64,000 bases of DNA from Dehalococcoidia bacterium (GCA_965247295.1 CBDFGQ010000008.1:64080-128079); one strand, 5' to 3'. Shown: positions 3,438 through 25,261, counted from the stretch's first letter. Numbers and translations are program-made. Notes: generated from the letters alone by a model not told the origin.

Positions 3438-4988
3438 ATGGCTTCGTCGTTGGTGCGTGGTAAATACGTCATTTGCAAGATCACGGGCCCCAACTCGGCG
3501 GATGTAGTGTCCGATGGGGCGGTTTACCAGAGGGACGGGGAGATCGTTGAGGTCGGAGGTTACGACGATCTGAAGGCCAGGCACCCCGATGTGGAGGTGA
3601 TCGGCTCTTCCAGGTACGTGGTCATGCCCGGGCTGGTCAACGACCATTTTCACGTGGGCCTGACCCCCTTTCAGCTTGGTGCGCCGGACCTACCATTGGA
3701 GATGTGGGGCCTGGCAACAATGGGCAGGGTGTATAGCAGGCAGGTGGACCCCTATCTGGACCAGATATACGGCGCCGTCCAGATGATCGAGTCGGGGACT
3801 ACCACAGTCCAGGCGATCCACGGTGCAGCGCGGGGCGCCCCGCCCATGAACCCGGATACGGCGGACAGGGCAATCAAGGCTTTCCAAGAGTCGGGTATGC
3901 GGGTATCCTACTGTCCCGTCGTAGCCGACCAGAACTCCCTCGTCTCCCTGGGCACCGAGGCTGGGTTCGCGGCGACCCTGCCCGGAGAGCTGGCGGAGCG
4001 TTTTTCCTCGTTCATGGCCCGGGGGTATCGGCCCATCGAGGAGTCGATGGCGGGATTCGACGAGATTCATGCGAGGTGGGGAAACCGCGATGAGCGGGTT
4101 CGGCTGACTCTGGCGCCCAGCAACGTGCACCGCTGCTCCGATGCCCTCCTGGTTGCCTGCAAGGAGATGGCTACCAAGTACAATTTAGGCATTCACATCC
4201 ACCTCCAGGAAAGCGTCTACCAGAAGCTGGAGGGGCTGCGTGTTTGGAACAAGACCCCCTTGCAGCACCTCCACGACCTGGGCTTTTTGGGGTCCGACAT
4301 AGTGTGCGGCCACAGCGTCTGGGTGACCGATGAGGACATCGAGCTGATGGCGGCGACGGGGACCAACGTCTGCCACAACGCCAGCTCGAATCTGAGGCTT
4401 AAGAGTGGTATCGCCCCGGTGGGGCCGCTGCTCAAGAAGGGAATCAGGATAGCCATAGGTAGCGACGAGGCGGGGCTGAACGACGACAAGGACCTGTTCC
4501 AGGAGATGCGGCTGGTGCTGAAGATACACCGAGTGCCCGGCGTGGAGAACGTGCCGCCCACGTCCTACCAGGTGTTTCAGATGGCCACGGAGAACGGGGC
4601 CTATGCCAGCTGGTTCGGGGACCGGGTGGGTACGCTGGAGCCCGGGAAGCGTGCGGACATAGTGCTGATGGACCTGAGAAACATAGAGGAGCCGTACCTG
4701 GACCCCGAGGTTTCCGTGGTGGACGCGGTGGTGCACCGTGGGCGGAGCCTGGACGTGGACACGGTTCTGGTGGATGGCGAGGTGGTGATGAGGGATAGGA
4801 AGCTGACCAAGGTCGACAAGGAGGCCCTCTTCAAGGAGCTTAAAGAGGTCCTCAGCCGTCCTCCCTCCGCCCACCGAGTTGAGACGCGGGACATGGCGGA
4901 GCAGCTGGAGCCCTACCTGAGGCGCTTCTACGAAGGCACGATCCCCGCGGGCATGACGCCCCATTCGGTCTATAACGCCAGGTCCTGA
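3438..4988 (+). CDS. amidohydrolase-superfamily enzyme, paralog P1 (chlorohydrolase/deaminase-like)
   Basis: 516 aa. Metal-ligand motifs: HxH (PGLVNDHFHVGL), HIHLQES, CGHSVW and GSDEAGLNDD. RBS GGAGAGGAGAG. Collinear over its full length with the ORFs at 5886, 10029 and 20245. Confidence 0.9.
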   Translation: MASSLVRGKYVICKITGPNSADVVSDGAVYQRDGEIVEVGGYDDLKARHPDVEVIGSSRYVVMPGLVNDHFHVGLTPFQLGAPDLPLEMWGLATMGRVYSRQVDPYLDQIYGAVQMIESGTTTVQAIHGAARGAPPMNPDTADRAIKAFQESGMRVSYCPVVADQNSLVSLGTEAGFAATLPGELAERFSSFMARGYRPIEESMAGFDEIHARWGNRDERVRLTLAPSNVHRCSDALLVACKEMATKYNLGIHIHLQESVYQKLEGLRVWNKTPLQHLHDLGFLGSDIVCGHSVWVTDEDIELMAATGTNVCHNASSNLRLKSGIAPVGPLLKKGIRIAIGSDEAGLNDDKDLFQEMRLVLKIHRVPGVENVPPTSYQVFQMATENGAYASWFGDRVGTLEPGKRADIVLMDLRNIEEPYLDPEVSVVDAVVHRGRSLDVDTVLVDGEVVMRDRKLTKVDKEALFKELKEVLSRPPSAHRVETRDMAEQLEPYLRRFYEGTIPAGMTPHSVYNARS

Positions 4989-5066
4989 ACCAGTGAAATG
5001 ACCCTTCCACCAGACCCTGTGGTTACGTTAACGTCATGAAGCCGGATCGTAGCCGGGGGAGGTGCA

Positions 5067-5774
5067 GTGACTACAGAGATCGGCGTCAAATATACGACGA
5101 TGATTCGCGACTTGCCTCGGAGCGAGCGTCCGAGAGAACGGTTGCTGGAATACGGTCCAAGCTATCTGAGCAACGCCGAGCTCATCGCCATCCTCCTTCG
5201 CACTGGAGTGGCGGGAGAGAACGTCCTCAATCTGGCCGTGCGGCTCCTTTCGCAGTTCCAGGGGTTGCCTGGTCTCGCCCGTGCCGCATCTGCCGAGCTG
5301 TGTTCCCTTAAGGGCATCAGCGGGGCTAAGGCTGCCCAGCTTCTGGCCGCCTTTGAGCTAGGACGACGGCAGGTGTCCCTACAGCCCGAAGATGGGACGA
5401 CAATCACCTGTCCTCAAGACGTAGCCAACCTACTGGGCGCGGAGATGGCTCTCCTGGACCAGGAGCATCTGCGCGTGTTGCATCTGGATACTAAGAACCA
5501 TGTGACGCGGGTCAACGAGATCTATGTAGGTAACGTGAACTCCTCGGTGGTCCGTGCCGCGGAGGTATTCAGGCCCGCCATTCGCGACAACTCGGTGGCG
5601 ATAATCGTCGTGCATAACCATCCCTCCGGCGACCCCATGCCTAGCCGCGAGGACATTGACATAACATCGCAGCTGAAGGGCTCCGGCGAGCTCCTGGGAG
5701 TTGAGCTGCTGGACCATATCATTCTGGCGGGTCAGCGGCACGTGAGCCTGAAAGAACGAGGCCTGGGTTTTTAG
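5067..5774 (+). CDS. radC: RadC-family JAB/MPN domain protein
   Basis: 235 aa. N-terminal motif LPRSERPRERLLEYGPSYLSNAELIAILLRTG and JAMM motif HNHPSGDPMPSREDIDIT. Confidence 0.9.
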   Translation: MTTEIGVKYTTMIRDLPRSERPRERLLEYGPSYLSNAELIAILLRTGVAGENVLNLAVRLLSQFQGLPGLARAASAELCSLKGISGAKAAQLLAAFELGRRQVSLQPEDGTTITCPQDVANLLGAEMALLDQEHLRVLHLDTKNHVTRVNEIYVGNVNSSVVRAAEVFRPAIRDNSVAIIVVHNHPSGDPMPSREDIDITSQLKGSGELLGVELLDHIILAGQRHVSLKERGLGF

Positions 5775-5885
5775 GGACGTTACACGACCGCTCCATATGA
5801 TATTCACTTAATGAATAATAAATAACGGATAATGTAAAGCTGCCCTCTGTCGTCTGGGCCTGGACAACGATAGCGGAGGAGAGAG

Positions 5886-7436
5886 ATGAGCTCAAGTCTG
5901 ATCAGGGGAAAGTACCTCATATGCAAAATAACCGGCCCCGACTCTGCGGAGGTGGTCTACGATGGCGCCGTGTACCAGCGGGACGGGGAGATTATGGAGA
6001 TCGGCAAGTACGAGGACCTGAGGGCGCTGCACCCTGACGAGGAGGTTATAGGCTCCTCAAACCACTTGGTGATGCCTGGGCTGGTTAACGACCACTTCCA
6101 TGTCGGCCTTTCGCCCTTCCAGATGGGGGCTCCCGATCTTCCCCTGGAGCTGTGGGGACTCCACCTCATGGGTGCCAGGCGCGTGGACCCCTACCTGGAC
6201 CAGCTCTACGGGGCGGTGCAGATGATCGAGTCGGGGACAACCACCGTGCAGGCCATACACGCAGGCGGGCGAGGGCTGGAGCCCCTGACCACGGAGGTAG
6301 CCGACAAAGTGGTGAAGGCGTACATGGACTCGGGGATGCGCGTCTCCTACGCCCCCATCTCGGTCAACAAGAACTCGCTGGTGGCCGGTGCTGGCGGTGG
6401 GGAGGATGATTTCATCGCCCAGCTGCCCGAAGAGCTGGCCCGGAGAATGGGCACCTTCATGGCACGAAAGTACGAGCCCCTGGAAGAGACTTTGGGCAAG
6501 CTTGAGGATATTTCCGCCAAGTACGGCAACAACCGCTACGAGCGGGTTCGAGTCATCATGGCACCCAGCAATGTCACCAGGTGCACCGACGACCTTCTGG
6601 AGGCCTACAAGCGTATGGCCACACGGTACAACACGGGCATTCACATTAACATCACGGAAACGGTGTATCAGAAGCTCTACGGGCTCCACACGTGGGGTGT
6701 GACCCCCCTCCAGCACCTCCAGGACCTGGGCTTCCTCGGCCCGGAGGTGACATGCGGCCACAGCGTTTGGGTGACCGATGAGGACATAGAGCTGATGGCG
6801 GCGACAGGCGTAACCGTCTGCACCAACACCAGCTCGAACATTCGGATCAAGAGCGGAATCGCCCCGATAAGCGGGATTTTGGCCCGTGGCATCCCCATTG
6901 CGATGGGCAGCGACGAGGCCGGGCTAAACGATGACAAGGACCTGCTTCAAGAGATGCGGCTGGTGCTGAAGCTGCACCGCGTCCCCGGCGTGGAGAATGT
7001 CCCCCCTACGGCGCACCAGGTGTTTCAGATGGCCACGGTCAACGGTGCCCGCGCCAGCATGTTCGGTGACCGCATCGGCGCACTCGAACGGGGCAAGAGG
7101 GCGGACATAGTGCTGATGAACTTGAGAAACATCGAGGAACCCTACCTGGACCCCGAGGTGTCCATGGTAGACGCCCTGGTGCACCGGGGGCGAAGTATTG
7201 ACGTCGATACCGTCATAGTCGACGGCGAGGTGCTGATGCGGGACAGGAAGCTCACGCGGATCGACAAGGAGGGCCTGTTCAAGGAGCTGAGGGAGGCACT
7301 GGACCGCCCTCTGGAGCCCGATGAGTTGGAACGGCGGTCCTTGAACAGAGACGTTGCACCGCACTTGAGTCGCTATCTAGAGGGCACCATGCCCGCGGAC
7401 GTCACTCCACATACCATTTACAACGCCCGGACGTAA
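5886..7436 (+). CDS. amidohydrolase-superfamily enzyme, paralog P2
   Basis: 516 aa with the same motif set as P1 (PGLVNDHFHVGL, HINITETVYQ, CGHSVW, GSDEAGLNDD). It is the most diverged of the four at the DNA level. Confidence 0.9.
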   Translation: MSSSLIRGKYLICKITGPDSAEVVYDGAVYQRDGEIMEIGKYEDLRALHPDEEVIGSSNHLVMPGLVNDHFHVGLSPFQMGAPDLPLELWGLHLMGARRVDPYLDQLYGAVQMIESGTTTVQAIHAGGRGLEPLTTEVADKVVKAYMDSGMRVSYAPISVNKNSLVAGAGGGEDDFIAQLPEELARRMGTFMARKYEPLEETLGKLEDISAKYGNNRYERVRVIMAPSNVTRCTDDLLEAYKRMATRYNTGIHINITETVYQKLYGLHTWGVTPLQHLQDLGFLGPEVTCGHSVWVTDEDIELMAATGVTVCTNTSSNIRIKSGIAPISGILARGIPIAMGSDEAGLNDDKDLLQEMRLVLKLHRVPGVENVPPTAHQVFQMATVNGARASMFGDRIGALERGKRADIVLMNLRNIEEPYLDPEVSMVDALVHRGRSIDVDTVIVDGEVLMRDRKLTRIDKEGLFKELREALDRPLEPDELERRSLNRDVAPHLSRYLEGTMPADVTPHTIYNART

Positions 7437-7683
7437 CGGGCTTACGATAAACAAGAAGTGCAGAGGGGTGATTCCCATCTGCCGGGATTCTGAGATGTCC
7501 CTCAAATATAAATTGCCCATCCTGGCGAAGAGGAGTCCAAGGCCGATGATACCTCGCTCATCGAAAATCTGGGGTTAGTCGTAGGGGATGGTAGGAGGGG
7601 TTCTCGGTACCCTGCTACCCGGTATCCGAGCGGTGTGATGTCGAGTAACTCGAACCTGGCAATGGTGTTCCCGTCGGGACATG

Positions 7684-7713
7684 TTGACAGTCCCATATGA
7701 ACTGTGCTACTTT
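7684..7713 (+). promoter_or_regulatory. candidate sigma70-type promoter of SBP1 (TTGACAG ... TGTG-C-TACTTT)
   Basis: TTGACA at 7684-7689 and TGTG plus TACTTT at 7703-7713. The same layout (TTGACAG-N13-TGTG-n-TAnnnT) recurs upstream of the two other SBP paralogs, at 11989 and 21967. Confidence 0.4.
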
Positions 7714-7754
7714 GTCATGCGAACTCCCAAAGTAGGTAGTATGGAGGCGTGATC

Positions 7755-9740
7755 ATGGGCTATCGTAGTGCGCTAACATCGAAATGGCTTCTCCTGGTAC
7801 CACTACTGGCAGTGCTGATAATGGCGGTGGCGTGTGGGGAGGAGGGGACGCCCGTCATCATCGAGAAGCAGGTGGTGGTTGAGAAGGAGGTTATCAAAGA
7901 GGTACCTGTAATTAAGGAAGTGGTAGTAGAGAAGGAGATTATCAAAGAGGTTATCAAAGAGGTACCTGTGGAAGTGGAGAAGGAAGTGGTGGTGGTGAAG
8001 GAGATTATCGTAGAGGTGCCGGTCGAAAAGATTATCGAGATCGTGACGACCCCGATAGCGGCGCCCAGGGCGGCGATAAGGATACCCGCCTACGTGAAGA
8101 AAGCCAAGTACGGCGGGACCCCGGCCTTTGCGGCGACATCGGACCCCGGGTTCCTGGACCTCCATTTCTCCGCCAGCATTAACTCCGGGCTGGTCGTGGG
8201 TGGTCCCAGGTTCAACCAGCTCGTGGAGTTCAACCCGGTGAATTGGAGCGAGATACAGGGGGACCTGGCCACAACGTGGGACCTGCGCGCGGACGGGAGG
8301 ACCTACACCTTCTTCCTCCACCCAGACGCCAAGTGGACCGACGGCAAGCCCGTCACGGCCGAGGACGTGGTGTTTAGCCTGGACCGGGTGGTGGATCCGG
8401 ACGCGATAAGGCCGAGGGCCGGCGGGGCTCTGAGGCCCTTCTATACTGCCGGCAACGCCAGGGCAATAGACGCCAGTATCGTGGAGATGACCACCAAGTT
8501 TCCCTCGACGGCCTTCTTGTCGGGGCTGGCCTTTGACTACGTAAAGATATATCCCAAACACATAGCGGAACAGCTCAGCCAGGATGACATGAACTGCTGC
8601 TACGAGAACATGCTTGGGTCGGGCCCCTGGATGGTCAAAAAATTTGAGCGGGGAAGTGTCATAGAATGGGAGAAGAACCCCAACTACTTCAAGGAGGGCT
8701 TGCCCTTCTGGGATGGCTGGAACTCCTTCCTTATCAAGGACCGGGTCAGGGCTCTAGCCGGCATGAAGACCGAGCAGGTGATGGGGTGGACGGCAATCAT
8801 CCAGTCCAGCCCCACATTCGATTTGTACCAGCAGCTGGAAAAAGACACCGGCGGCAAGGTGAAGGCGATCCAGGTGCAGGGCTCTACTCACCTTGGTATC
8901 CACACCAACCATACCAAGCCGCCCTTCGACGACGTAAGGGTTCGGAAGGCACTTCAGATGGCGGTGGACAGGGTGGAGATAATCAAGACCGCCTACAAGG
9001 GGTTCGGGCGACAGGCGACCTACTTGCCTGGAGGTACATCCATAGCTGACGCCGAAGCCAACTGGGCTGGGTGGCGGTACGTGGACTCCAGCGGGAACCT
9101 AATAACCACGGACCCGGTGAAGGTAGTGGGGGCCCAAAAGCACCCCGACGACATAGCCGAGGCCAAAGCGCTGGTAAAAGCGGCGGGTGCCGAGAACTTC
9201 AAGGGCAGAATGATCAGTACTCAGGACCCCGCCGCTGGACAAGTTGCTGTCCTCCTCGCCAGGCAGCTAAAAGAGCTCTTCGGCTGGGACATGAGTGTCG
9301 ACGTTATGGACCTGCCTGCCTATTCCATTGAGCGAAACGAAGGCAGGTTTAATATGCACGGAGCGGGTCACGGTATGGAGCTTAACGACCCCAATGCCCT
9401 GCTGACGCAGATGCACCTGGAGGGTGGTGGCAGGAACCAGCAGAACTGGCACGACGAGCGGATCGACAAGCTCTTCGTGGAACAGAACCAGGCCCTGAAC
9501 GCCGATGCCCGGAAGGCAAAGATCCTGGAGATAGAAAAGATCATGGTGGATGAGGGGATTTCTCAGTGGACCCCCATTGCGTGGCTGCCAGTCAATGGGG
9601 CGATGAACGTCAAGATAAGGAACTACTTCCTGCCGGCTCCCACCGACGTGGCCAGCGCATGGAATATCCAGGCTAACAGCAAAAAGGAGCACATGTGGTT
9701 GGACCCTGACGCCAAGGCCGACTGGGGTCTGGGAAACTAG
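7755..9740 (+). CDS. ABC transporter substrate-binding lipoprotein, family 5 (peptide/nickel, DppA/OppA-like), SBP1
   Basis: I prefer the ATG at 7755 (GGAGGCGTGATC-ATG, identical context to SBP3). Lipobox-like IMAVAC-GEE, then an (V/I)EKEV tether, then a family-5 SBP core (DGKPVTAEDVVFSLDR, WEKNPNYFKEGLPFWDG). Confidence 0.9.
   Translation: MGYRSALTSKWLLLVPLLAVLIMAVACGEEGTPVIIEKQVVVEKEVIKEVPVIKEVVVEKEIIKEVIKEVPVEVEKEVVVVKEIIVEVPVEKIIEIVTTPIAAPRAAIRIPAYVKKAKYGGTPAFAATSDPGFLDLHFSASINSGLVVGGPRFNQLVEFNPVNWSEIQGDLATTWDLRADGRTYTFFLHPDAKWTDGKPVTAEDVVFSLDRVVDPDAIRPRAGGALRPFYTAGNARAIDASIVEMTTKFPSTAFLSGLAFDYVKIYPKHIAEQLSQDDMNCCYENMLGSGPWMVKKFERGSVIEWEKNPNYFKEGLPFWDGWNSFLIKDRVRALAGMKTEQVMGWTAIIQSSPTFDLYQQLEKDTGGKVKAIQVQGSTHLGIHTNHTKPPFDDVRVRKALQMAVDRVEIIKTAYKGFGRQATYLPGGTSIADAEANWAGWRYVDSSGNLITTDPVKVVGAQKHPDDIAEAKALVKAAGAENFKGRMISTQDPAAGQVAVLLARQLKELFGWDMSVDVMDLPAYSIERNEGRFNMHGAGHGMELNDPNALLTQMHLEGGGRNQQNWHDERIDKLFVEQNQALNADARKAKILEIEKIMVDEGISQWTPIAWLPVNGAMNVKIRNYFLPAPTDVASAWNIQANSKKEHMWLDPDAKADWGLGN
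7851..8045 (+). repeat. in-frame low-complexity (V/I)-E-K-E-V tether repeat inside SBP1 (~65 aa)
   Basis: PVIIEKQVVVEKEVIKEVPVIKEVVVEKEIIKEVIKEVPVEVEKEVVVVKEIIVEVPVEKIIEIV. Degenerate gagaaggaggttatcaaagaggtacct units are visible in the DNA. Confidence 0.85.
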
Positions 9741-9829
9741 CAGCGCCCACGACTTAGCTGGAGGCCCGGTGGGACCATGTCGCGGGTCAGACCCGGACGC
9801 TCCACCGATGTAGAGTGGTGAGTCAAACA

Positions 9830-9873
9830 CAGTTGGCTCTATGCGGGAAACGCATAGAGCCAACTGGTTTTCT
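9830..9873 (+). terminator. intrinsic terminator after SBP1
   Basis: Perfect 16-bp stem CAGTTGGCTCTATGCG / CGCATAGAGCCAACTG, loop GGAAA, followed by GTTTTCT. Confidence 0.8.
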
Positions 9874-9960
9874 CCGGGGTCCTCTCCGCGGAGACAAGCA
9901 GGTTCTCGCTGTCCTGTCGTGGCTATCCTGGGGAAGTCGCTACCTTTTGGCAGCCGAATC

Positions 9961-9989
9961 TTGACACCTGTACACCAGTGTGTGATGAT
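9961..9989 (+). promoter_or_regulatory. candidate promoter of P3 (TTGACA-17-GATGAT with upstream TGTG)
   Basis: ttgacacctgtacaccagtgtgtgatgat. The whole 70-bp upstream region is duplicated almost exactly in front of P4 (20177-20244). Confidence 0.4.
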
Positions 9990-10028
9990 GCGTCGCGTCC
10001 CACCCTTACCTATACATAGGAGGCGCCA

Positions 10029-11579
10029 ATGGCTTCGACACTGGTGCGGGGAAAGTACGTCATCTGCAAGGTCACGGGCCCCGACTCGGCTGAGGTTGTG
10101 TCCGATGGCGCGGTGTACCAGCGGGACGGCGAGATCATTGAGGTGGGGCGTTACGATGATCTACGGGCCAAGCACCCCAGCGAGGAGGTCATCGGCTCTT
10201 CGAAGTACGTGGTTATGCCGGGGCTGGTCAACGATCATTTCCACGTCGGCCTGACACCCGTCCAGATGGGGGCACTCGACCGTCCCCTGGAGCTCTGGGG
10301 TTTCGCGAGGATGGGTGCCAGACGCATCGACCCCTATCTGGACCAGCTTTATGGCGCCGTGCAGATGATCGAAACGGGGACCACCACCGTGCAGGCCATC
10401 CACGGGGGCGGACAGTGGTGGAGGCCCATGGACCCAGCGATAGCGGACAAGGCCATAAGTGCCTTTCTGGACTCGGGGATGCGCGTCTCCTACGCTCCCT
10501 CGGTACGTGACAAGGACGGTAGCGTTTCTGGAAGCCGCGGAGGGGAAGCGGAGCTGGCGGCTACCATGCCCGGTGACCTTGCCGAGCGGTTCCTGTCAAT
10601 GCACAGGCAGAGCTATGCTCCGGTTGATGAGCTGATGGGCAATCTGGAGCAGATCTGCTCCAAGTACGGTAACGATCGGTATGAGCGCATCAGGATCACC
10701 ATGGCCCCGAGCAACGTCCACCGCTGCTCCGACGCCCTGCTGGAGGCCTTCAGAAATATGGCCACCAAGTACAGCACGGGCATCCACATCCACCTCCAGG
10801 AGAGCGTTTACCAGAAGCTGTACGGGTTTCGTCTGTGGAACAAGACGCCCCTTCAGCACCTCCACGACCTGGGGTTTCTGGGCCCCGACGTGGTCTGCGG
10901 GCACAGCGTCTGGGTGACTGACGAGGACATCGAGGTGATGGCGGCGACGGGGACCAACGTCTGCCACAACGCCAGCTCCAATCTGAGGCTTCAGAGCGGT
11001 ATTGCCCCAGTGGGGCCGCTGCTCAAGAAGGGAATCAGGATAGCCATAGGTAGCGACGAGGCGGGGCTGAACGACGACAAGGACCTGTTCCAGGAGATGC
11101 GGCTGGTGCTGAAGATACACCGGGTGCCTGGAGTGGAGAACGTGCCGCCCACGTCCTACCAGGTGTTTCAGATGGCCACGGAGAACGGCGCCTATGCCAG
11201 CTGGTTCGGGGACAAGGTGGGTACGTTGGAGCCGGGGAAGCGTGCGGACATAGTGTTACTGAACCTTGAGAACATAGAGGAGCCGTACCTAGACCCGGAG
11301 GTGTCCATTGTGGACGCGGTGGTGCACCGTGGGCGGAGCCTGGACGTGGACACGGTGTTGGTGGACGGTGAGGTGGTGATGAGGGATAGGAAGCTTACCA
11401 AGGTTGACAAGGAAGACCTGTACAAGGAGATCAAAGCTGCCCTGGACCGGCCTCTGCAACCCGCAGAGGAAGACCGCAGGGATCTCGCGAAGAAGTTGGA
11501 GCCATATGCTTGGCGCTTCTACGAGGGTAACATTCCCCCGGACCCAACACCCCACAGCGTCTACAACGCCCGCTCCTGA
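10029..11579 (+). CDS. amidohydrolase-superfamily enzyme, paralog P3
   Basis: 516 aa with the same motifs as P1. The first ~195 nt and nt 10624-11462 are near-identical to P4. The central part is divergent. Confidence 0.9.
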   Translation: MASTLVRGKYVICKVTGPDSAEVVSDGAVYQRDGEIIEVGRYDDLRAKHPSEEVIGSSKYVVMPGLVNDHFHVGLTPVQMGALDRPLELWGFARMGARRIDPYLDQLYGAVQMIETGTTTVQAIHGGGQWWRPMDPAIADKAISAFLDSGMRVSYAPSVRDKDGSVSGSRGGEAELAATMPGDLAERFLSMHRQSYAPVDELMGNLEQICSKYGNDRYERIRITMAPSNVHRCSDALLEAFRNMATKYSTGIHIHLQESVYQKLYGFRLWNKTPLQHLHDLGFLGPDVVCGHSVWVTDEDIEVMAATGTNVCHNASSNLRLQSGIAPVGPLLKKGIRIAIGSDEAGLNDDKDLFQEMRLVLKIHRVPGVENVPPTSYQVFQMATENGAYASWFGDKVGTLEPGKRADIVLLNLENIEEPYLDPEVSIVDAVVHRGRSLDVDTVLVDGEVVMRDRKLTKVDKEDLYKEIKAALDRPLQPAEEDRRDLAKKLEPYAWRFYEGNIPPDPTPHSVYNARS

Positions 11580-11585
11580 CCGGAG

Positions 11586-11906
11586 TGTGGGCTGGGCACC
11601 GGCCGCTGGCGGATTATACTGCGCCGCATCCTCCCCAACTGCCTGTCCCTTTACATCGTCTTCTTCAGCATTACCGTGGGATTCGCCATCATAGGGGAGG
11701 CCTCCTTGAGCTTCCTGGGGCTGGGAGCGCCTCCGGATGTGCCATCGTGGGGCGGATTGCTTGCCCTGGTGTCCTTCAGATATATAGACCTGGCTCCGTG
11801 GATATCCATAGCCCCCGGCGCCCCCATAGCCATCGTGGTCTTCGCCTTCAACATGCTGGGGGATGCCCTGCGTGACGTGCTGGACCCCCGGCTAAGAGGA
11901 ACGTAA
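11586..11906 (+). pseudogene. 3' remnant of a DppC-like ABC permease gene (last ~105 codons only)
   Basis: Translation starting directly after the P3 stop gives GLGTGRWRIILRRILPNCLSLYIVFFSITVGFAIIGEASLSFLGLGAPPDVPSWGG...FNMLGDALRDVLDPRLRGT*. It aligns with the C-terminus of the intact permeases at 14889-15797 and 25262-26176. No N-terminal part or start context is present. Confidence 0.8.
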
Positions 11907-13808: not shown

Positions 13809-13834
13809 TCGCCTAGCTCTGAATGCGGGTATAC

Positions 13835-13880
13835 AACCGACCTGGGGCCTGAACTTACCACTTGGCCCCAGGTCGGTTGA
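13835..13880 (+). terminator. strong intra-operon hairpin (attenuator or mRNA-stabiliser candidate) between SBP2 and the permease
   Basis: Perfect 16-bp stem CAACCGACCTGGGGCC / GGCCCCAGGTCGGTTG with a 14-nt loop and only a weak T tract (ACTGTTTGTT). Confidence 0.6.
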
Positions 13881-13903
13881 CTGTTTGTTATAATGGAGTG
13901 GCG

Positions 13904-14863
13904 ATGACCACCTATGTGATGAAGCGGCTGTCACTCTTTGTCCCCACCCTTTTTCTTGTAACCGTCATACTGTTCCTACTCACCCGCATGGTCCCCGGCG
14001 ATCCCGCCCTACTTATCCTGCTGGGAGACATGGGTGAGGGCTCCTACACCCAGGAGGAGCTGGACAACCTGCGCCACGAGCTTGGAACGGATAGGCCCCT
14101 TGTCGTCCAGTACTACACGTGGGTATGGGACATGGGGCGGGGAGACTTTGGCCTGTCCATGTGGTACCGGGACCCGGTGTGGAACGAGATAAAGGACAAG
14201 TTCCCCACGACTCTGGAGCTGACCGTTTTAGCCTTCCTCATCAGCTTTGGGTTTGCCGTGCCCCTGGGCATCGTTTCCGCCATCAGGCAGGACTCGTGGT
14301 TTGACTATGCCGCCAGGATTTTCAGCATCACAGGGATAGCGCTTCCCACCTTCTGGGTCGCAATTTTGATTATATTTGTCCTGGTCAACTACTTCGATTG
14401 GCTACCGCCGATAGGTTATGCGGTGCTCTGGGAAGACCCCCTCACCAACCTTCAGCAGATGATCTTTCCCGCGGCTGTGCTGGGGTTTTACAATATGGCA
14501 TTTGTGGCCCGCGTGACCAGGTCCTCCATGCTGGACGTGATGCGGGAGGATTATATCCGCACCGCCAGAGCCAAGGGGCTGTGGGGGTTGGTGGTGATCA
14601 CCAGGCACGCCCTCAAAAACGCCTTCCTGCCGGTGCTTACCATCTCAGGCTGGCAGGTCGGACGTCTCATAGGTGGGACTATCATCATAGAGAGCATATT
14701 CCTGGTGCCGGGGATAGGAATAACGCTGATAGCGGGCGTAAATCATAGGGACTTCTCCATGATTCAGGCGATCGTCTTCCTGGTGGCGGTGGGGGTGCTC
14801 TTTCTGAATCTGGCAATAGACATGCTGTACGCCTGGATCGACCCGAGAATCCGGTACTCATGA
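13904..14863 (+). CDS. ABC transporter permease, DppB/OppB-like
   Basis: I prefer the ATG at 13904 (MTTYVMKRLSLFVPTLFLV). It has the typical N-terminal TM, a binding-protein-dependent transport signature region (YIRTARAKGL) and a C-terminal IDPRIRY. Confidence 0.9.
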   Translation: MTTYVMKRLSLFVPTLFLVTVILFLLTRMVPGDPALLILLGDMGEGSYTQEELDNLRHELGTDRPLVVQYYTWVWDMGRGDFGLSMWYRDPVWNEIKDKFPTTLELTVLAFLISFGFAVPLGIVSAIRQDSWFDYAARIFSITGIALPTFWVAILIIFVLVNYFDWLPPIGYAVLWEDPLTNLQQMIFPAAVLGFYNMAFVARVTRSSMLDVMREDYIRTARAKGLWGLVVITRHALKNAFLPVLTISGWQVGRLIGGTIIIESIFLVPGIGITLIAGVNHRDFSMIQAIVFLVAVGVLFLNLAIDMLYAWIDPRIRYS

Positions 14864-14888
14864 TCCTTTAGAGAGATAGGGAGCGATT

Positions 14889-15797
14889 TTGGGTAGTCAG
14901 AGGGGAATCGCCGAGGCCGTTCGGGGCAGCCCTTTAAGCATGCGGCGATTGTCCGCTTTTCTAGGCGTGATCGCCACCTTTTCCAGGCGCAAGCCCCTGG
15001 GAGCCATTGGTGCCGCTATAGTGGTGCTCCTCATACTGACGGCCATATTTGCGCCCTTTATCGCGCCCCATGACCCCGACAAAGTGAACTCCGATTTCAT
15101 CTACGCGCCGCCCAGCAGCACGTTCCTCGTGGGTACAGACCAGATAGGGCGCGACACCTTGAGCAGGCTCATCTATGGGGCACGCGTGTCGCTGTACGTG
15201 GGCATAGTCAGCGTGCTGATCGGGGCTACCATGGGTACCCTCCTGGGCATCATCAGCGCCTATTTCGGAGGACTGACGGACCTCTTCCTCCAGCGGATCC
15301 TGGACGCCCTCATAGCCTTTCCCAGCATTATCTTTGCTATGGCCATCATGGCCGCCCTGGGTGCCTCCCTGGAGAACGTGATCATCGCCCTGGTCATTAT
15401 TTTCATGCCGGGCGCCGCGCGGACCCTGCGGTCCCGCGCCCTGAGCTTGAAGGAGATGGACTTCGTTCTGGCGGCCAAGGCCGTGGGCGCTGGAGACTGG
15501 CGTATCATTCTCCGCCACATCCTCCCCAATTGCATGTCGCTCTACATCGTTTTCTTCACTATCACGGTGGGATTCGCGATTCTGGTGGAGGCCTCCCTGA
15601 GCTTCCTTGGGCTGGGTGCGCCGCCCGAGGTGCCCACCTGGGGCGGTATGCTTACCGATGCCGCGAGCAAGTACATCAAGCTGGCGCCCTGGTTGGCAAT
15701 ACTTCCGGGTGTCGCCGTAGCTTTGGTGGTGTTCGGGTTTAACCTGCTGGGTGACGCCCTGCGGGACGTGCTCGATCCCAGGCTGCGCGGCACATGA
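14889..15797 (+). CDS. ABC transporter permease, DppC/OppC-like
   Basis: 302 aa. The TTG start is kept because the N-terminus (SQRGIAEA) aligns with the paralog at 25262 (NQRGVAEEA). C-terminal motif LGDALRDVLDPRLRG. Confidence 0.85.
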   Translation: MGSQRGIAEAVRGSPLSMRRLSAFLGVIATFSRRKPLGAIGAAIVVLLILTAIFAPFIAPHDPDKVNSDFIYAPPSSTFLVGTDQIGRDTLSRLIYGARVSLYVGIVSVLIGATMGTLLGIISAYFGGLTDLFLQRILDALIAFPSIIFAMAIMAALGASLENVIIALVIIFMPGAARTLRSRALSLKEMDFVLAAKAVGAGDWRIILRHILPNCMSLYIVFFTITVGFAILVEASLSFLGLGAPPEVPTWGGMLTDAASKYIKLAPWLAILPGVAVALVVFGFNLLGDALRDVLDPRLRGT

Positions 15798-16035
15798 CCT
15801 TTGGGGTCAGGCGCCGCGCCCTGCCCGGTTATTCCGCTGCCCCTTGATTTCCAGTCCTCTTCCTATTACTATATGAGAATGTAATTGGGCTTCAGGGGCG
15901 GCTAACGGCGCTGCCCCACGAGGATAACGGGGTCTCCTTTAACTTAGCGCGTACATTGCCCAATCGGCGGCTAGCTGGTAAGGGTCTGGTTGGTCGACTC
16001 TTAAAAGATTCGTAACACCTAGTGAGGAGGGAAGC

Positions 16036-17445
16036 ATGGCTAAGAATGACATGGCTCTTATGGCCCACCTGATGCGGCGGGCCGGCTTCGGGGCCACCAG
16101 GGAGGAGCTGGAGGGGTACGTGGCCCAGGGGTACGAGGCCACGGTTGAGTGGCTGCTGCATCCCGAGAAGCAACCCGACTGGGACGAGGACCTGTACACC
16201 CGGATCTATCCCGAGTGCCAGGACCTGACGGCCCTGCCGGCAAATCAGATCATGTGGGTATACAGGATGATCAATACCAAGAGGCCTCTGCAAGAGAAGA
16301 TAGCCCTCTTCTGGCACGGGTTGCTGGTCACCGGGGACGCCAAGGTTAATATGGGGCCGACGACCCGGAAGCACCTGGAGATGTACCGTCGATGCGGTCT
16401 GGGAAGCTATCGGGACCTGCTGATGGAGATATCCACGGACCCGTCCATGCTCTACTTTCTGGACAATGTGGAGAGCCATAAGGGTACCGTTAACGAGAAC
16501 TACGGCAGGGAGCTGTTGGAGCTGTTCTCCATAGGCGTTGGGATGGATGGGAATATTAACTACACCGAGGACGACGTGAAGGCCTGCTCCCGGGCCTTCA
16601 CCGGGTGGAACATAGCTCCAACCATAGGATATGGGGGGATACCGTGGGAGTTCCAGTACGACCCGGCGGACCATGATGATGAGGAGAAGACCTTCCTTGG
16701 GGAGACTGGGCGGTGGAACGGGGAGGACATAGTCGACATCCTCGTGCGCCAGCCGTCCACGGCGCGGTTCATCTCCCGGCACCTGTACGATTTCTTTGTA
16801 GCCGACGAGGCGGAGGTGCCGGCATGGAAGGACACGCCACCCCGGGACATGGAGGCCGTCGTCATCCTGGAGAAGGCCTTTGTAGAGAGCAACTACGACA
16901 TGCGAGAGGTGATGAGGGTACTGTTCAACTCCGAGTTCTTCAAGGAGTCCCGCTTCCAGAAGATCAAGAGCCCCGCGGAGGTTGTGGTGGGGACCTTGAG
17001 GTTGGTGGGGGACTTCACCCAGCCCAAGCCAGGGCTGTTCGACATCGCCATGGAGGTCAACTACATGGGGCAGGAGTTGGGGAACCCGCCCACGGTGGAG
17101 GGGTGGCACACCGGGAAAGAGTGGATCAACAGTGGTACCCTGGTGGACCGCACCAACTTCGTGACGGGACAGCTCGAGAGGATCGACCAGCCCGGGGTGC
17201 GGGACATCGTAGACCGGGTGATGGCCCGTGGGGACGCCGTGACCCCCGAAGGTCTGGTGGAAGGATGCCTGGACATGCTGGGATCGGTGGAGGTAACGGA
17301 GAAGACTCGCAACTCCCTGTTGGAGCACGCCAAGAGTGGCGGGCCCTTGAGCAGGGAGACCGAGGATGAGAGGGCCAAGTTCGCCCGGAGAGTGGGGCAG
17401 ATGCTCCAGATGATCTCCGCTTCGGCCGAGTACCAGTACGGCTAG
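16036..17445 (+). CDS. DUF1800 domain protein
   Basis: 469 aa. MAHLMRRAGFGAT, NENYGRELLELFSIGVG and WHTGKEWINSGTL. RBS GAGGAGGGAAGC-ATG. Confidence 0.85.
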   Translation: MAKNDMALMAHLMRRAGFGATREELEGYVAQGYEATVEWLLHPEKQPDWDEDLYTRIYPECQDLTALPANQIMWVYRMINTKRPLQEKIALFWHGLLVTGDAKVNMGPTTRKHLEMYRRCGLGSYRDLLMEISTDPSMLYFLDNVESHKGTVNENYGRELLELFSIGVGMDGNINYTEDDVKACSRAFTGWNIAPTIGYGGIPWEFQYDPADHDDEEKTFLGETGRWNGEDIVDILVRQPSTARFISRHLYDFFVADEAEVPAWKDTPPRDMEAVVILEKAFVESNYDMREVMRVLFNSEFFKESRFQKIKSPAEVVVGTLRLVGDFTQPKPGLFDIAMEVNYMGQELGNPPTVEGWHTGKEWINSGTLVDRTNFVTGQLERIDQPGVRDIVDRVMARGDAVTPEGLVEGCLDMLGSVEVTEKTRNSLLEHAKSGGPLSRETEDERAKFARRVGQMLQMISASAEYQYG

Positions 17446-17628
17446 CCGCAAACGCTGAGATCCAATTTGGGGGCCGTGTTTACGGATGTACCAGTCCGAC
17501 GTGGTGCCAATGGAGGTCCAGCTAATCCAGGACGCCATGTGAGCAGGTTGTGTGGGTTGCTCCCCGGCTAAGCGCAGCTGGCAATGGGCTAAGAAAGCCC
17601 GCAAAAACGCGAGAGAGGCGAGGTAGAA

Positions 17629-18615
17629 ATGACCGTTAGGTGGTTCGGCGTAACGTCTCGAATATTTCACTACACCCATTCGATGGGCCGATTCTCCTTT
17701 GGTGGGTCCGGATTTATGCATCCCATGGACGTGGCCGTTGGGCAGAACGGCCTACTTTACGTGGCCAACAGCTCCCGGCAGGGCCGGCCCGATGGCGTGC
17801 GGATTACGATGTGCACCGTTGACCAGGACTACGTGTCGGAGTTTGGCTCCTTCGGCGAAGGGGACAGCCAGTTCATCTGGCCCATGGGCATTGCCCTCGA
17901 CGGGGATGAGAACGTATACGTCTCCGACCAGTGGCTGAACCGGATTTCCGTATTCAACAAAGACGGTGAGTTCCTGTCCAAGTGGGGAGTAGCAGGGATG
18001 GGCGATGGGGAGCTAGGTCAGCCTTCGGGTATCGCCTTTGATGGAGAGGACAATCTCCTCGTCGTCGACACCAATAACAACAGGGTCCAGAAGTTTACCA
18101 AGGACGGGAGACTGCTTGCCAATTGGGGAGAGGCAGGAAGCGGCCCGGGCCAGTTCAACCTTCCGTGGGGAATCGCCGTTGACGACAAGGGCGACGTTTA
18201 CGTGGCCGACTGGCGCAACGACCGGATACAGAAGTTCAGCGCGGAGGGCGAGTACCTGGCCGAGTTTGGCTCTTCGGGAAGCGGTGTGGGGCAGTTCAAT
18301 CGTCCTGCTGACGTGGCCGTCGACAAGGAGGGGGACATCTACGTCGTGGACGGGTGGAACAACAGGGTGCAGGTTCTTGCGCCTGACGGGCGCCACGTGA
18401 CCACCTTCATCGGAGATGCCACCGTGTCCAAGTGGTATCAGGAGTCGCTGGACGCCAACCCCGAACTGGTCAAGGTGCGCCAACTGGTGAGGAACAACGA
18501 ATCCGAGATGCGCTTCTGGAATCCGGTGGCGGTGGAGATCGACCCCGACGGGCGCGTACTGGTGGTTGACTGTCCACGGCATCGAATTCAGTTTTATCAG
18601 AAGGATAATTACTGA
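17629..18615 (+). CDS. NHL-repeat beta-propeller protein
   Basis: 328 aa with repeated units such as GQFNLPWGIAVDDKGDVYVADWRNDRIQKF and GQFNRPADVAVDKEGDIYVVDGWNNRVQVL. Confidence 0.85.
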   Translation: MTVRWFGVTSRIFHYTHSMGRFSFGGSGFMHPMDVAVGQNGLLYVANSSRQGRPDGVRITMCTVDQDYVSEFGSFGEGDSQFIWPMGIALDGDENVYVSDQWLNRISVFNKDGEFLSKWGVAGMGDGELGQPSGIAFDGEDNLLVVDTNNNRVQKFTKDGRLLANWGEAGSGPGQFNLPWGIAVDDKGDVYVADWRNDRIQKFSAEGEYLAEFGSSGSGVGQFNRPADVAVDKEGDIYVVDGWNNRVQVLAPDGRHVTTFIGDATVSKWYQESLDANPELVKVRQLVRNNESEMRFWNPVAVEIDPDGRVLVVDCPRHRIQFYQKDNY

Positions 18616-18673
18616 TTGCGGCTAGCGGGCTGATGGTGGTCGCCCTCAGACTGGTGGGTGGATCGACAAAAGG

Positions 18674-19549
18674 TCACCAGAGCGCGATCTCCATCAGCTC
18701 ATCTGCCAGAATGATCTCTCCGCTGTATATTTGCGAGACATTCCTTAGAGCCTCCTCTCTGAAGGCGGGCTCGTACACATGACCACCGCTGTGAGTGATT
18801 ATTAGCTTCCTGGCGCCGGCACGATGTGCCATAGTGGCGGCATCGGCAGTCCCCTGTTGGCACGCCGTCACGTTACTCTCCGATTTTTCTCCCACTCCAC
18901 CACCACAGTGGGCGCACGCATTCGCAACAAGGACATCGGTCCCCTGACCGAACTCGCTCACCGCATCGACATCATCCGTATCGCCGGCGAACACGATGGT
19001 CCCATCAGCGCATTCTACTCGGTAGGCCAGGGACTCCAGCCAGGGCTGCACGTGATGCACCGTGGCCGCGGTCACTGTCCATCCGTTGTGCGCCGTCACC
19101 TTTCCTGGGCCAACATCGGTTACCTCCACAGATGGGTATGATCGCGGTAAGGTGCCGCCTCTTCTGACGTGGGCGCGTTGGCTAAGGGGGTTTTCCACTC
19201 GAGTCTTCAGGTCATGGGCGAAGGCTCCGTTTGGCCCGATGAGCCGATCGGTGATCAGCTCGGTGAGGACCGGCCCGAAGACCTGCAGCTGATTGTCCTC
19301 ACCGATACTATGGTACCAGCGGGTCAGCAGGAAGCATGGATAGTCCGTGTCGTGGTCGGAGTGGTGGTGTGTGAAGAAAAGGAAGTCGATTTGATTAGGG
19401 AAGAGGCCGGCGTTTACAAGCTTGTAGGTGCTGGCCGGCCCGCAGTCAAACATCAGGAAATCGTTGTTTAGCTGTAAAATACTACAGCTTCCGAATCGGT
19501 TCTTTTGGGGCATCGGAGTGCCCGCGCCCACTATGTATAGCGTGCTCAT
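18674..19549 (-). CDS. MBL-fold metallo-hydrolase (RNase Z/BN-like)
   Basis: HxHxDH motif (FFTHHHSDHDTDY). I prefer the ATG at 19549 (GGAGAGGA about 10 nt upstream), which gives MSTLYIVGAGTPMP. Confidence 0.85.
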   Translation of the reverse strand: MSTLYIVGAGTPMPQKNRFGSCSILQLNNDFLMFDCGPASTYKLVNAGLFPNQIDFLFFTHHHSDHDTDYPCFLLTRWYHSIGEDNQLQVFGPVLTELITDRLIGPNGAFAHDLKTRVENPLSQRAHVRRGGTLPRSYPSVEVTDVGPGKVTAHNGWTVTAATVHHVQPWLESLAYRVECADGTIVFAGDTDDVDAVSEFGQGTDVLVANACAHCGGGVGEKSESNVTACQQGTADAATMAHRAGARKLIITHSGGHVYEPAFREEALRNVSQIYSGEIILADELMEIALW

Positions 19550-20176
19550 ACTCGTCATCCTCTCCACTTAGTCCTTGCGAAGTAAGCTCTCCCTCAGGAT
19601 GTTTAGGCCACCTTAGTTATATGATTCTGCACAACATCTTAATGTAATGTCATCGTTAGGTGTCCAGACCCGTCGGGACGACTCAGCATCTGGGGCGGGG
19701 GTTGCTTGGGACTCACTCGTGAGCTCGCCAGAATCCTCGCTTCACTGGGAATGACATCGGTCAAGGTCTCTGTGTCGAAGTACTTAGGACACCTCTGGGC
19801 CGGGATTTCCCTCTCCAGACTGCTTGGGCTTACGGATGGTGCGTCTGCGACGAGAGCCATGGTACTATCACTCACAAATGCCGTCAACCGTCCTATAAAC
19901 GACCAGTCATGCTCAGCCCCTGGGAGAGCCGACCGACCCAAAAAGTTGCCAAGGCTGTAGGCCAGAATGAGAATCTGGAGGCGCGCCTGGCTGGACAGGT
20001 TCCCCATGGTTGGCCGTTTCGATAGTTGTGGTCTCCATCATCTGGCTGGGCGACCCTCTGCGGGCGTACTGGACCAGCGGCTTTCGGGACCGTAGTAAGG
20101 GGCGCTACAGGTTCTAGACGCCTTTTGGGGTAACGGCACCGCTACCAGTGGTCCATCGCCCTACTGTTGACGCCTC

Positions 20177-20205
20177 TTGACACCTGTACACCAGTGTGTG
20201 ATGAT
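20177..20205 (+). promoter_or_regulatory. candidate promoter of P4 (duplicate of the P3 promoter)
   Basis: The same ttgacacctgtacaccagtgtgtgatgat sequence as at 9961. Confidence 0.4.
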
Positions 20206-20244
20206 GCGTCGCGTCCCACCCTTACCTATATATAGGAGGCGCCA

Positions 20245-21789
20245 ATGGCTTCGACACTGGTGAGAGGAAAGTACGTCATCTGCAAGGTCACGGGCCCCGA
20301 CTCGGCTGAGGTTGTGTCCGATGGCGCGGTGTACCAGCGGGACGGCGAGATCATTGAGGTGGGGCGTTACGATGATCTACGGGCCAAGCACCCCAGCGAG
20401 GAGGTCATCGGCTCTTCGAAGTACGTGGTTATGCCTGGGTTGGTGAACGACCATTTCCACGTAGGCCTGACTCCCTTTCAGCTTGGTGCGCCGGACCTGC
20501 CCCTGGAGATGTGGGGCCTGGCCAGGCTGGGCTGCAGACGCATCGACCCCTATCTGGACCAGCTTTATGGCGCCGTGCAGATGATCGAATCGGGGACTAC
20601 CACGGTGCAGGCCATGGTGAGCCCGGGACGGGGGGCACGGCCCATGAGTCTGGAGCACGCCGACAGGGTTGTTAAGGCTTATCTGGACTCCGGGATGCGG
20701 GCCTCCTACGCTCCTGGCGCCGTCGACCAGAACTCCCTGGTGTCGCTGGACGGAGAGGCTGCCTTCGCTTCCCAGCTGCCCGGCGACCTCGGGGAGCGCT
20801 TCAGTTCATTCATGGGACAGACCTACCGGCCAGTTGATGAACTGATGGGCAATCTGGAGCAGATCTGCTCCAAGTACGGTAACGATCGGTATGAGCGCAT
20901 CAGGATCACCATGGCCCCGAGCAACGTCCACCGCTGCTCCGACGCCCTGCTGGAGGCCTTCAGAAATATGGCCACCAAGTACAGCACGGGCATCCACATC
21001 CACCTCCAGGAGAGCGTTTACCAGAAGCTGTACGGGTTTCGTCTGTGGAACAAGACGCCCCTTCAGCACCTCCACGACCTGGGGTTTCTGGGCCCCGACG
21101 TGGTCTGCGGGCACAGCGTCTGGGTGACTGACGAGGACATCGAGGTGATGGCGGCGACGGGGACCAACGTCTGCCACAACGCCAGCTCCAATCTGAGGCT
21201 TCAGAGCGGTATTGCCCCAGTGGGGCCGCTGCTCAAGAAGGGAATCAGGATAGCCATAGGTAGCGACGAGGCGGGGCTGAACGACGACAAGGACCTGTTC
21301 CAGGAGATGCGGCTGGTGCTGAAGATACACCGGGTGCCTGGAGTGGAGAACGTGCCGCCCACGTCCTACCAGGTGTTTCAGATGGCCACGGAGAACGGCG
21401 CCTATGCCAGCTGGTTCGGGGACAAGGTGGGTACGTTGGAGCCCGGGAAGCGTGCGGACATAGTGTTACTGAACCTTGAGAACATAGAGGAGCCGTACCT
21501 CGACCCGGAGGTGTCCATTGTGGACGCGGTGGTGCACCGTGGGCGGAGCCTGGACGTGGACACGGTGTTGGTGGACGGTGAGGTGGTGATGAGGGATAGG
21601 AAGCTTACCAAGGTTGACAAGGAAGACCTGTACAAGGAGATCAAAGCTGCCCTGGACCGGCCTCTGCAACCCCAGGAGCTGGAGAGGAAGGCGCTGAGCA
21701 AAGAACTCGAACCCCACCTCAGGCGGTACTACACCGGCGCCCTCCCCCGCGACGCGACGCCCCACAGCGTCTACAATGCCCGGACCTAG
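20245..21789 (+). CDS. amidohydrolase-superfamily enzyme, paralog P4
   Basis: 514 aa with the same motifs as P1. Its 5' end and 3' two-thirds are near-identical to P3. A short block (TPFQLGAPDLPLEMWGLA) is shared with P1 instead. Confidence 0.9.
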   Translation: MASTLVRGKYVICKVTGPDSAEVVSDGAVYQRDGEIIEVGRYDDLRAKHPSEEVIGSSKYVVMPGLVNDHFHVGLTPFQLGAPDLPLEMWGLARLGCRRIDPYLDQLYGAVQMIESGTTTVQAMVSPGRGARPMSLEHADRVVKAYLDSGMRASYAPGAVDQNSLVSLDGEAAFASQLPGDLGERFSSFMGQTYRPVDELMGNLEQICSKYGNDRYERIRITMAPSNVHRCSDALLEAFRNMATKYSTGIHIHLQESVYQKLYGFRLWNKTPLQHLHDLGFLGPDVVCGHSVWVTDEDIEVMAATGTNVCHNASSNLRLQSGIAPVGPLLKKGIRIAIGSDEAGLNDDKDLFQEMRLVLKIHRVPGVENVPPTSYQVFQMATENGAYASWFGDKVGTLEPGKRADIVLLNLENIEEPYLDPEVSIVDAVVHRGRSLDVDTVLVDGEVVMRDRKLTKVDKEDLYKEIKAALDRPLQPQELERKALSKELEPHLRRYYTGALPRDATPHSVYNART

Positions 21790-25237: not shown

Positions 25238-25261
25238 GCTACATTTGTAGCTGGAGTAAGC

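Follow-up and report, generated by a model that had tools for sequence, protein, structure and literature searches.

Mosaic amidohydrolase paralogs in a Dehalococcoidia bacterium: probable repeated gene conversion around lineage-specific cassettes

The outer-membrane protein paralogs babA/babB, sabA/sabB and hopM/hopN of Helicobacter pylori are a known case of segmental concerted evolution. These paralogs lie at distant loci; their 5' and 3' parts are homogenised by RecA-type conversion, a divergent middle region persists, and the state of the tracts depends on the strain. A similar pattern is found in P1–P4, four amidohydrolase genes on a 64,000-nucleotide (nt) stretch of DNA from a Dehalococcoidia bacterium (GCA_965247295.1, CBDFGQ010000008.1:64080-128079; the whole stretch is referred to as the window). 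A first-pass annotation of the window had reported four amidohydrolase paralogs with near-identical flanks around a divergent central cassette, and their open reading frames (ORFs) were confirmed, all on the plus strand (Table 1). The middle region of the H. pylori proteins carries ligand specificity. These proteins are surface adhesins under host-driven selection, and their specificity region is also swapped between loci, whereas P1–P4 encode cytoplasmic-type enzymes in which exchange spares the putative specificity region.

In Neisseria pilE/pilS, Borrelia vlsE and diversity-generating retroelements, an expressed gene receives variable segments from silent donors. P1–P4 resemble these systems in that repeated stretches of genes undergo conversion or templated exchange, but here all copies are full-length ORFs with catalytic residues, and it is the conserved segments that move. 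The mismatch spectrum involves all bases and is not adenine-specific, on which ground mutagenesis of the retroelement type was rejected, without an exhaustive scan of the window for a reverse transcriptase. The tufA/tufB genes and rRNA operons resemble P1–P4 in that intragenomic, non-reciprocal recombination keeps copies near-identical; there, however, whole genes are homogenised and the copies are redundant, while in P1–P4 only segments of anciently diverged paralogs are affected. The present locus is a new example of a known phenomenon and reveals no new mechanism. Mosaic divergence under interlocus gene conversion, with "islands of divergence", is described for tandem HMA4 paralogues (10.1101/2025.10.29.685298), and gene conversion is described for a Mycobacterium tuberculosis outbreak (PMC12046097). 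They have in common with P1–P4 the mosaic of homogenised and divergent segments, long reads showing conversion as strain-level variation. They differ in organism and gene family, and the divergent islands of P1–P4 predate the species.

Whole-length protein identity among P1–P4 ranges from 69% (P2–P3) to 87.5% (P3–P4). The four genes were aligned by codon (1557 columns), and P3 and P4 were also compared base by base at fixed offsets. Uniform divergence along the aligned genes was not seen; instead, the P3–P4 mismatches follow a stepwise block pattern, with 2 in columns 1–191, about 133 in columns 192–612, 2 in columns 613–1443 and 47 in columns 1444–1557. Identity is about 99–100% in the tracts and the island listed in Table 1, and about 55–75% in the central cassette (amino acids (aa) 64–201) and the last 38 codons. 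The shared promoter, leader and start of the coding sequence described in the first-pass annotation were recovered with three mismatches. Its 839-nt 3' block is likewise present at a constant offset of 10210, but contains three mismatches (10624–11462) and not two. The heavy divergence of the roughly 400 nt in between holds overall (some 133 mismatches in about 420 columns) but is not uniform, as an 81-nt near-identical island lies within it, and that of the last ~40 codons is borne out by 47 mismatches in the final 114 nt. All in all, the figures given in that annotation were off by no more than a few bases and one mismatch. Comparison of the flanks gave no P3–P4 similarity upstream of −70 or beyond the stop codons.

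Table 1. Coordinates of the P1–P4 genes, their shared and divergent segments, and the adjacent transporter genes in the window (SBP, solute-binding protein; tracts are named according to the proposed history)
Feature	Position	Strand	Description
P1	3438-4988	+	516 aa; cog0402-type amidohydrolase paralog with "P1 type" cassette; Pfam Amidohydro_1, 1.8e-50
P2	5886-7436	+	516 aa paralog; without recent tract in this genome
P3	10029-11579	+	516 aa paralog; cassette and 3' scaffold of one orthologous lineage
P4	20245-21789	+	514 aa mosaic paralog; own cassette and tail, P3-type scaffold
5' conversion tract, P3 copy	9959-10219	+	261 nt, 3 mismatches to P4; promoter, leader, codons 1-63
5' conversion tract, P4 copy	20175-20435	+	261 nt
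P3 divergent cassette	10220-10622	+	aa 64-198, barrel b1 to a3; broken by the 81-nt island
P4 divergent cassette	20436-20832	+	island inside; 0 differences to conspecific L078
Near-identical island	10319-10399 (P3) = 20535-20615 (P4)	+	81 nt, 3 mismatches
3' conversion tract, P3 copy	10632-11462	+	831 nt, 2 mismatches; extended 10623-11462, 840 nt, 3 mismatches
3' conversion tract, P4 copy	20842-21672	+	831 nt, offset 10210; extended 20833-21672, 840 nt; strain-polymorphic
P3 divergent C-terminal tail and stop	11463-11579	+	aa 479-516; synonymous divergence saturated
P4 divergent C-terminal tail and stop	21673-21789	+	identical in L078
P1 conversion tract	4311-4822	+	512 nt, 93% to P3 10902-11413 and P4 21112-21623
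SBP_bac_5 solute-binding protein, downstream of P2 (SBP2)	7749-9740	+	49% aa identical to SBP4, 32% to SBP3
SBP_bac_5 (SBP3) and two Opp-type permease genes, downstream of P3	12072-15797	+	
SBP_bac_5 (SBP4) and two Opp-type permease genes, downstream of P4	22007-26176	+	

The Nei–Gojobori synonymous divergence (dS) between P3 and P4 is 0.044 in the N-terminal block A and 0.010 in block C, the 3' scaffold, whereas it reaches 1.01 for the cassette and saturation for the tail. In other paralog pairs the same blocks show values of 0.5–2 (block C 0.5–1.2). The P3–P4 jump in dS, from 0.01–0.04 to about 1 or saturation, is attributed to recombination and not to constraint. Matching runs of polymorphic sites are statistically long, the longest comprising 200 sites for P3–P4 and 32 for both P1–P3 and P1–P4 (permutation p <= 1e-4 in each case), and this holds with third codon positions only. 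Furthermore, in block C the paralogs within the genome are closer to one another than each is to its orthologue, with aa identities of 100% between P3 and P4, 86% to P3-type orthologues and ca. 76–82% to P4-type ones. Block C is also the most conserved part of the family (mean entropy 0.67 across 118 members, compared to 0.85 for the cassette and 1.05 for block A), and identical blocks could on this ground be ascribed to extreme purifying selection or codon constraint on the scaffold, with no recombination at all. The dS values refute this explanation, whose probability is practically nil: the synonymous sites of block C are identical too, at a dS of 0.01 where other pairs reach 0.5–1.2; P3 and P4 are identical in block A, despite a family variability above that of the cassette, as well as in the non-coding leader; and the paralogs of relatives are 70–90% identical there. 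Purifying selection as the source of the P3–P4 identity is thus excluded by dS. The dN/dS ratio (omega) is 0.05–0.4 in every block and comparison and 0.1–0.3 for the cassettes, which evolve under purifying selection with no sign of diversifying selection. Among the paralogs of the related genomes L001–L003 (three each), no comparable tracts were found, identity being 60–92% throughout, so that the recent conversion events are species-specific.

The descent of the individual blocks was followed across 89 homologues (P1–P4 included; 85 from other Dehalococcoidia genomes) taken from 77 fetched loci and the window. Block-wise nearest neighbours, clade-wise identities in 13 segments and block-wise nonsynonymous divergence (dN) were used to define affinities, and the three agree. 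The P3 cassette is 70–72% and its block C 86% aa identical to L001/2/3_10001 and L021_10191. The P1 cassette belongs to a second lineage (85–86% aa identity to L001_19265, L002_16025 and L003_16729), and that of P4 is nearest to L004/L075/L017-type genes, a third widespread lineage (75% aa; dN 0.18–0.19). Block C of P4 is P3-type, with a dN of 0.097 to L001_10001 versus 0.15–0.19 to P4-type genes. As the 3' scaffold of P4 is P3-type and the cassette and scaffold of P3 share one lineage, P3 is identified as the donor of the 3' tract. P1 is closer to P3-type than to P1-type orthologues over aa 301–440, and aa 251–300 of P3 and P4 look P1-type, which suggests an older exchange. By these affinities the cassettes appear as old lineages with orthologues in other species, predating the present one. 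The "diversification mechanism" put forward in the first-pass annotation is not supported, given the age of the cassettes, their orthologues in other species and their omega of 0.1–0.3; conversion only erases differences.

A 112-nt run of perfect identity between P1 and P3/P4 had likewise been noted. The run is real, but measures 113 nt (4419–4531 = 11010–11122 in P3, common to P4) and forms the exact core of the 512-nt segment of 93% identity. A second block, TPFQLGAPDLPLEMWGLA, had been assigned to P1 and P4 only. Its peptide is the family consensus and its DNA identity of 92.6% over 54 nt is not significant alone, and a P1–P4 conversion tract over this block was rejected. No recent tract was found in P2, where identity to the other paralogs is 42–87% throughout with no high-scoring segment. 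A fifth paralog, P0003, elsewhere on the 961-kb contig that contains the window, has its own cassette and tail and is 94–96% identical to P1, P3 and P4 over aa 301–400. Compared with their relative P0003, P0124 and P0125 are 78–90% identical in aa 1–203 and 95–98% after aa 204.

Comparison with other strains reveals variation in the tracts themselves. P1–P4 all have orthologues on a 614-kb contig from a close strain, whose P4 orthologue, P0121, shows the same mosaic. L078, a 15.4-kb contig (ERZ25067264), is 99.3% identical to window positions 15016–30418. Of its 107 differences, 33 fall in P4 and the 70-nt leader, about 25 of them in the 3' tract, and none in the cassette or tail of P4. Block C of L078 shows the state common to P1 or P2 at 12 of 16 scorable sites, and its 3' tract is 97% identical to P3, compared to 99.8% for P4 of the window. 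Because L078 keeps these P1/P2-like bases, it holds an older P3-derived tract, and P4 of the window was re-converted after the strains split. At the 3' junction, P0121 and P0122 retain the native KELRA.LNV motif (KELRAGLNV in P0121) where P4 of the window has the KEIKAALDR of P3, the junction lying about 40 nt further 5' in other strains than in the window. P0131, the P2 of another strain, carries P3-like residues at positions 411, 427 and 431. The 3' tract of P4 is thus found in three states (L078, P0121, P0122). Conversion is regarded as ongoing because conspecific strains carry the same mosaic with different tract states; together with the dS contrast (0.044 and 0.010 versus 1.0 and saturation), this bears out the ongoing conversion between paralogs proposed in the first-pass annotation.

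The same comparisons bear on the quality of the assembly. The identical blocks could have arisen during metagenome assembly, with paralogs joined into chimeras or collapsed into one consensus, as the source is a contig of the metagenome-assembled-genome (MAG) type and the mosaic was checked against other assemblies, not reads. However, both copies are resolved with 2–3 private mismatches per tract, the contig extends over 961 kb with tracts of at most 840 nt, i.e. under long-read length, and the mosaic P4 recurs in the 614-kb contig and in L078, different strains with different junctions. Three assemblies, three junction states and private mismatches in each tract make a chimera very unlikely.

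The polarity of the exchange could also be the reverse, with P4 as a recent whole-gene copy of P3, including the 70-nt promoter, in a second transporter locus and with its cassette and tail replaced later by segments of another paralog or of a foreign allele. The abrupt start of the shared sequence at the −35 box and its extension over most of the gene would fit such a history, as would a permease-gene remnant beside P3 (see below), which shows that the region is rearranged. Yet two separate imports, of cassette and of tail, from the same lineage would be required. Across strains, moreover, it is the cassette and tail of P4 that are stable and the scaffold that varies, the L078 scaffold is the older 97% version with ancestral states, and P4-type genes beside SBP and permease genes are widespread in other genomes. 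A reversed polarity is therefore considered improbable.

In summary, repeated interlocus gene conversion among the old paralogs P1–P4 and a fifth copy is taken to account for the mosaic, with a probability of about 0.85. Short, repeated, non-reciprocal events of homologous recombination would have occurred between copies 2–17 kb apart in direct orientation. The comparisons show that the P3-type 3' scaffold (~840 nt) has overwritten that of P4, that the 261-nt promoter/5' tract and the 81-nt island are also common to P3 and P4, and that P1 has taken in about 0.5 kb of P3-type sequence. P4 was struck at least twice, first by the older tract (97%, kept in L078) and then by the re-conversion seen in the window (99.8%), with its 3' junction ~40 nt further on. 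The cassette and tail stay lineage-specific, which may be due to a divergence too great for strand exchange and/or to removal of converted variants by selection for distinct specificities. The net outcome is homogenisation, shared promoter included, with no diversity generated.

Several points weigh against this assignment. The 5' tract ends at −70, where neither the other paralogs nor the promoters of orthologues show visible homology. As a classical tract should end inside homology, the 5' piece may have a separate origin, for example in illegitimate recombination facilitated by homology or in an old promoter common to both genes. The lineage affinities name no donor for the 5' tract or the 81-nt island. 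The 614-kb strain was compared at the protein level only, L078 has a coverage of ~3x by its name, and the support from the three assemblies is indirect. Finally, where the cassette lies with respect to the metal site is deduced from the order of secondary-structure elements.

In the secondary-structure order of the P3 model, aa 1–63 are the N-terminal part of a beta-sandwich and the cassette (aa 64–201) runs from strand b1 to helix a3. Block C comprises b4–b8 and the C-terminal sandwich, and the tail the last helix and a low-confidence C-terminus; the 3' tract spans b4–b8, the C-terminal beta-sandwich and the first C-terminal helix. The first-pass annotation had named the catalytic scaffold as the homogenised part, which is too narrow a description, since the promoter and the N-terminal beta-sandwich segment (aa 1–63) are included. 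Differences between P3 and P4 cluster at aa 76–97 (after b1), 124–146 (after b2) and 157–197 (after b3, with an insertion). Enzymes of the amidohydrolase superfamily have their pocket where the barrel strands end on the C-terminal side, and the distal portion of the substrate is bound by the loops that follow the early strands. From this topology it is plausible that the cassette, with b1–b3 and the following loops, faces the substrate.

Two factors may keep the cassette and tail out of the exchange. Between unconverted paralog pairs the longest exact matches are 20–38 nt in block C, 7–18 nt in the tail and 9–17 nt in the cassette core, where P2–P3 is the one exception at 28 nt. The minimal homology for RecA-type recombination in Escherichia coli is about 20–30 nt. 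Because the match lengths straddle this minimum, a homology barrier can set the tract boundaries without selection, and each conversion of a block makes a further one easier. The data are also compatible with selection for distinct specificities. Such selection would be the principal force in a modular system in which conversion of scaffold and promoter is tolerated or favoured (e.g. for co-regulation or hetero-oligomer compatibility) while conversion of cassette and tail is purged, so that the latter two would fit every enzyme to whatever substrate its own binding protein takes up. P1, P3 and P4 each retain a lineage-specific cassette and tail despite the flanking tracts, the old and the new P4 tract have the same 5' boundary, and a different SBP_bac_5 gene directly follows each of P2, P3 and P4 (the SBPs being 29–49% identical to one another). 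In P2 and P3 of the 614-kb strain, moreover, six of the seven strain-level replacements fall in the cassette. Still, lack of homology predicts the same boundaries, none of the 13 replacements in P0131 falls in the cassette, and the argument is drawn from sequence. Maintenance by selection in this manner is a possible but rather unlikely explanation. More doubtful again is a system of modular isozymes in which selection would keep the substrate-recognition cassette and a co-adapted tail distinct and matched to the solute of the neighbouring binding protein, with conversion keeping the catalytic half, the N-terminal domain and the promoter identical.

Concerning the enzyme family, all four proteins match Pfam Amidohydro_1, and HUTI_composite_bact is also matched. 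The AlphaFold2 model of P3 (mean predicted local distance difference test 89, predicted template-modelling (TM) score 0.92) and Pfam show a (beta/alpha)8 barrel with a composite N-/C-terminal beta-sandwich domain. Its top Foldseek matches are 3lnp, 4f0r, 4dzh, 4v1x and 3ls9 (probability 1.00), together with AtzA and TrzN, with E values of 1e-32 to 1e-23 and TM scores to the target of 0.75–0.88 for cog0402 enzymes. Across 118 homologues H70, H72, H253, E258, H292 and D343 are invariant and H255 is conserved in at least 90%; the metal-ligand and HxxE set, with HxH on b1, His on b5, His on b6 and Asp on b8, is present in P1–P4. The fold and the HxH / H / HxxE / H / D metal and proton-shuttle residues are common to P1–P4 and cog0402 enzymes (the methylthioadenosine/S-adenosylhomocysteine (MTA/SAH) and adenosine deaminases 4f0r, 4dzh, 4gbd and Tm0936; AtzA; TrzN; isocytosine/guanine deaminases). 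Conversely, P1–P4 are only 16–25% identical to these, are ~70 aa longer, and have an extra insertion after b3 and a two-helix C-terminal extension. The best NCBIfam models are of the TRZ/ATZ-type deaminase/chlorohydrolase (231–247 bits versus cut-offs of 522–609), and no NCBIfam equivalog cut-off was reached (MTA/SAH deaminase, 5'-deoxyadenosine deaminase, 8-oxoguanine deaminase, N-ethylammeline chlorohydrolase, guanine deaminase, HutF). With scores this far under the cut-offs, no specific activity can be assigned. P1–P4 belong to an uncharacterised Dehalococcoidia family of 516-aa mononuclear-metal amidohydrolases of the cog0402 deaminase/chlorohydrolase type. The family has more than 1500 database relatives at E <= 1e-50. 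Those of P3 in the GTDB species genomes are nearly all from Dehalococcoidia/SAR202-type MAGs, at no more than 79% aa identity. Literature searches on SAR202 amidohydrolases, Tm0936 and cog0402 turned up nothing that bears on this family. A separate amidohydrolase, Amidohydro_3 (5.8e-90), is encoded at 30871–32448 (−), outside the paralog set.

The shared 5' tract begins 2 nt before the TTGACA −35 hexamer of a promoter-like sequence, TTGACA-17-(TG)GATGAT, at 9961–9989. The imperfect palindrome ACACCTGTACACCAGTGT occurs at the P3 and P4 promoters only, and was not found elsewhere in the window or in the fetched loci except L078; the promoters of orthologues are unrelated to the shared one. Through the shared promoter, P3 and P4 are probably co-regulated. 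At 9830–9866 (+), between SBP2 and the P3 promoter, a 16 bp stem with a T-run behind it makes up a strong terminator-like hairpin, and thus P3 is probably transcribed from its own promoter. Directly upstream of P3-/P4-type orthologues, short tandem repeats were observed, namely three to four copies of GCGGGTATTCACA in L001 (9930–10000), GGGCGGGTATTCCACC repeats in the corresponding region of L003 and two copies of AGGTTGGTTTAGGTATA in L017 (~9940–9990); L002 also has such repeats in that region. These may be operator arrays, unrelated to the shared promoter of the window.

As P2, P3 and P4 lie directly upstream of genes for Opp/Dpp-type ATP-binding cassette importers, a role in processing imported nitrogenous solutes is probable. 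The transporter genes of the modules are 29–59% aa identical, so that the modules are old and only the amidohydrolase genes exchange sequence; on the same grounds a recent segmental duplication of the whole transporter module was ruled out. Between the P3 stop codon and SBP3, at 11589–11897 (+), the C-terminal 103 aa of an OppC-type permease remain, 73% aa identical to the permease at 14889–15797, and this remnant suggests that the P3 locus once underwent a deletion or rearrangement. At 7874–8023 and 22168–22407, the SBP_bac_5 proteins begin with a lipoprotein-like signal (..AVACG), after which come long repeats rich in Glu, Lys, Val and Ile, EKEVIVEKEVIKEVP, whose length varies among paralogs and strains (693 aa in L078 versus a 707-aa ORF in the window). 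Between P1 and P2, at 5067–5774 (+), lies a RadC-like JAB-domain gene with a UPF0758 N-terminal domain.

Further observations concern the remainder of the window. In a DUF1800 gene (16036–17445, +), a ~200-nt patch at 16674–16869 differs from L078 at ~40 positions, mostly third codon positions and with several 1–2-nt indels, and in L078 the gene call is split in two; a further recombination patch is the probable explanation. A DUF1800 paralog, 66% identical, is located at 1–413 (−). An exact 50-nt direct repeat (33739–33788 and 33942–33991, 203 nt apart) lies inside overlapping minus-strand ORFs at 33178–34017 and 33884–34867 with weak CAP-domain matches, which could represent a frameshifted or duplicated gene; Tandem Repeats Finder found no tandem array around 33.5–34.3 kb. 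A 1855-aa ORF at 42082–47649 (+) contains diverged internal repeats of ~150–175 nt at 45363–46080.

With strain-level resolution, the locus offers a clear example of interlocus conversion still at work among the enzyme paralogs of an uncultured Dehalococcoidia lineage. Whole-gene trees and clustering at 90% identity misplace such genes, as P4 clusters with P3 by its scaffold and its substrate-side half is of another lineage. Where conversion stops, modules are naturally set apart (b1–a3 and tail versus the rest), and this border could be used to probe specificity in a large, uncharacterised family. Should the modular isozymes prove real, they would be co-regulated, possibly hetero-oligomeric enzymes with different specificities, and the natural cassette boundaries would be a ready map for specificity swaps in cog0402 amidohydrolases.

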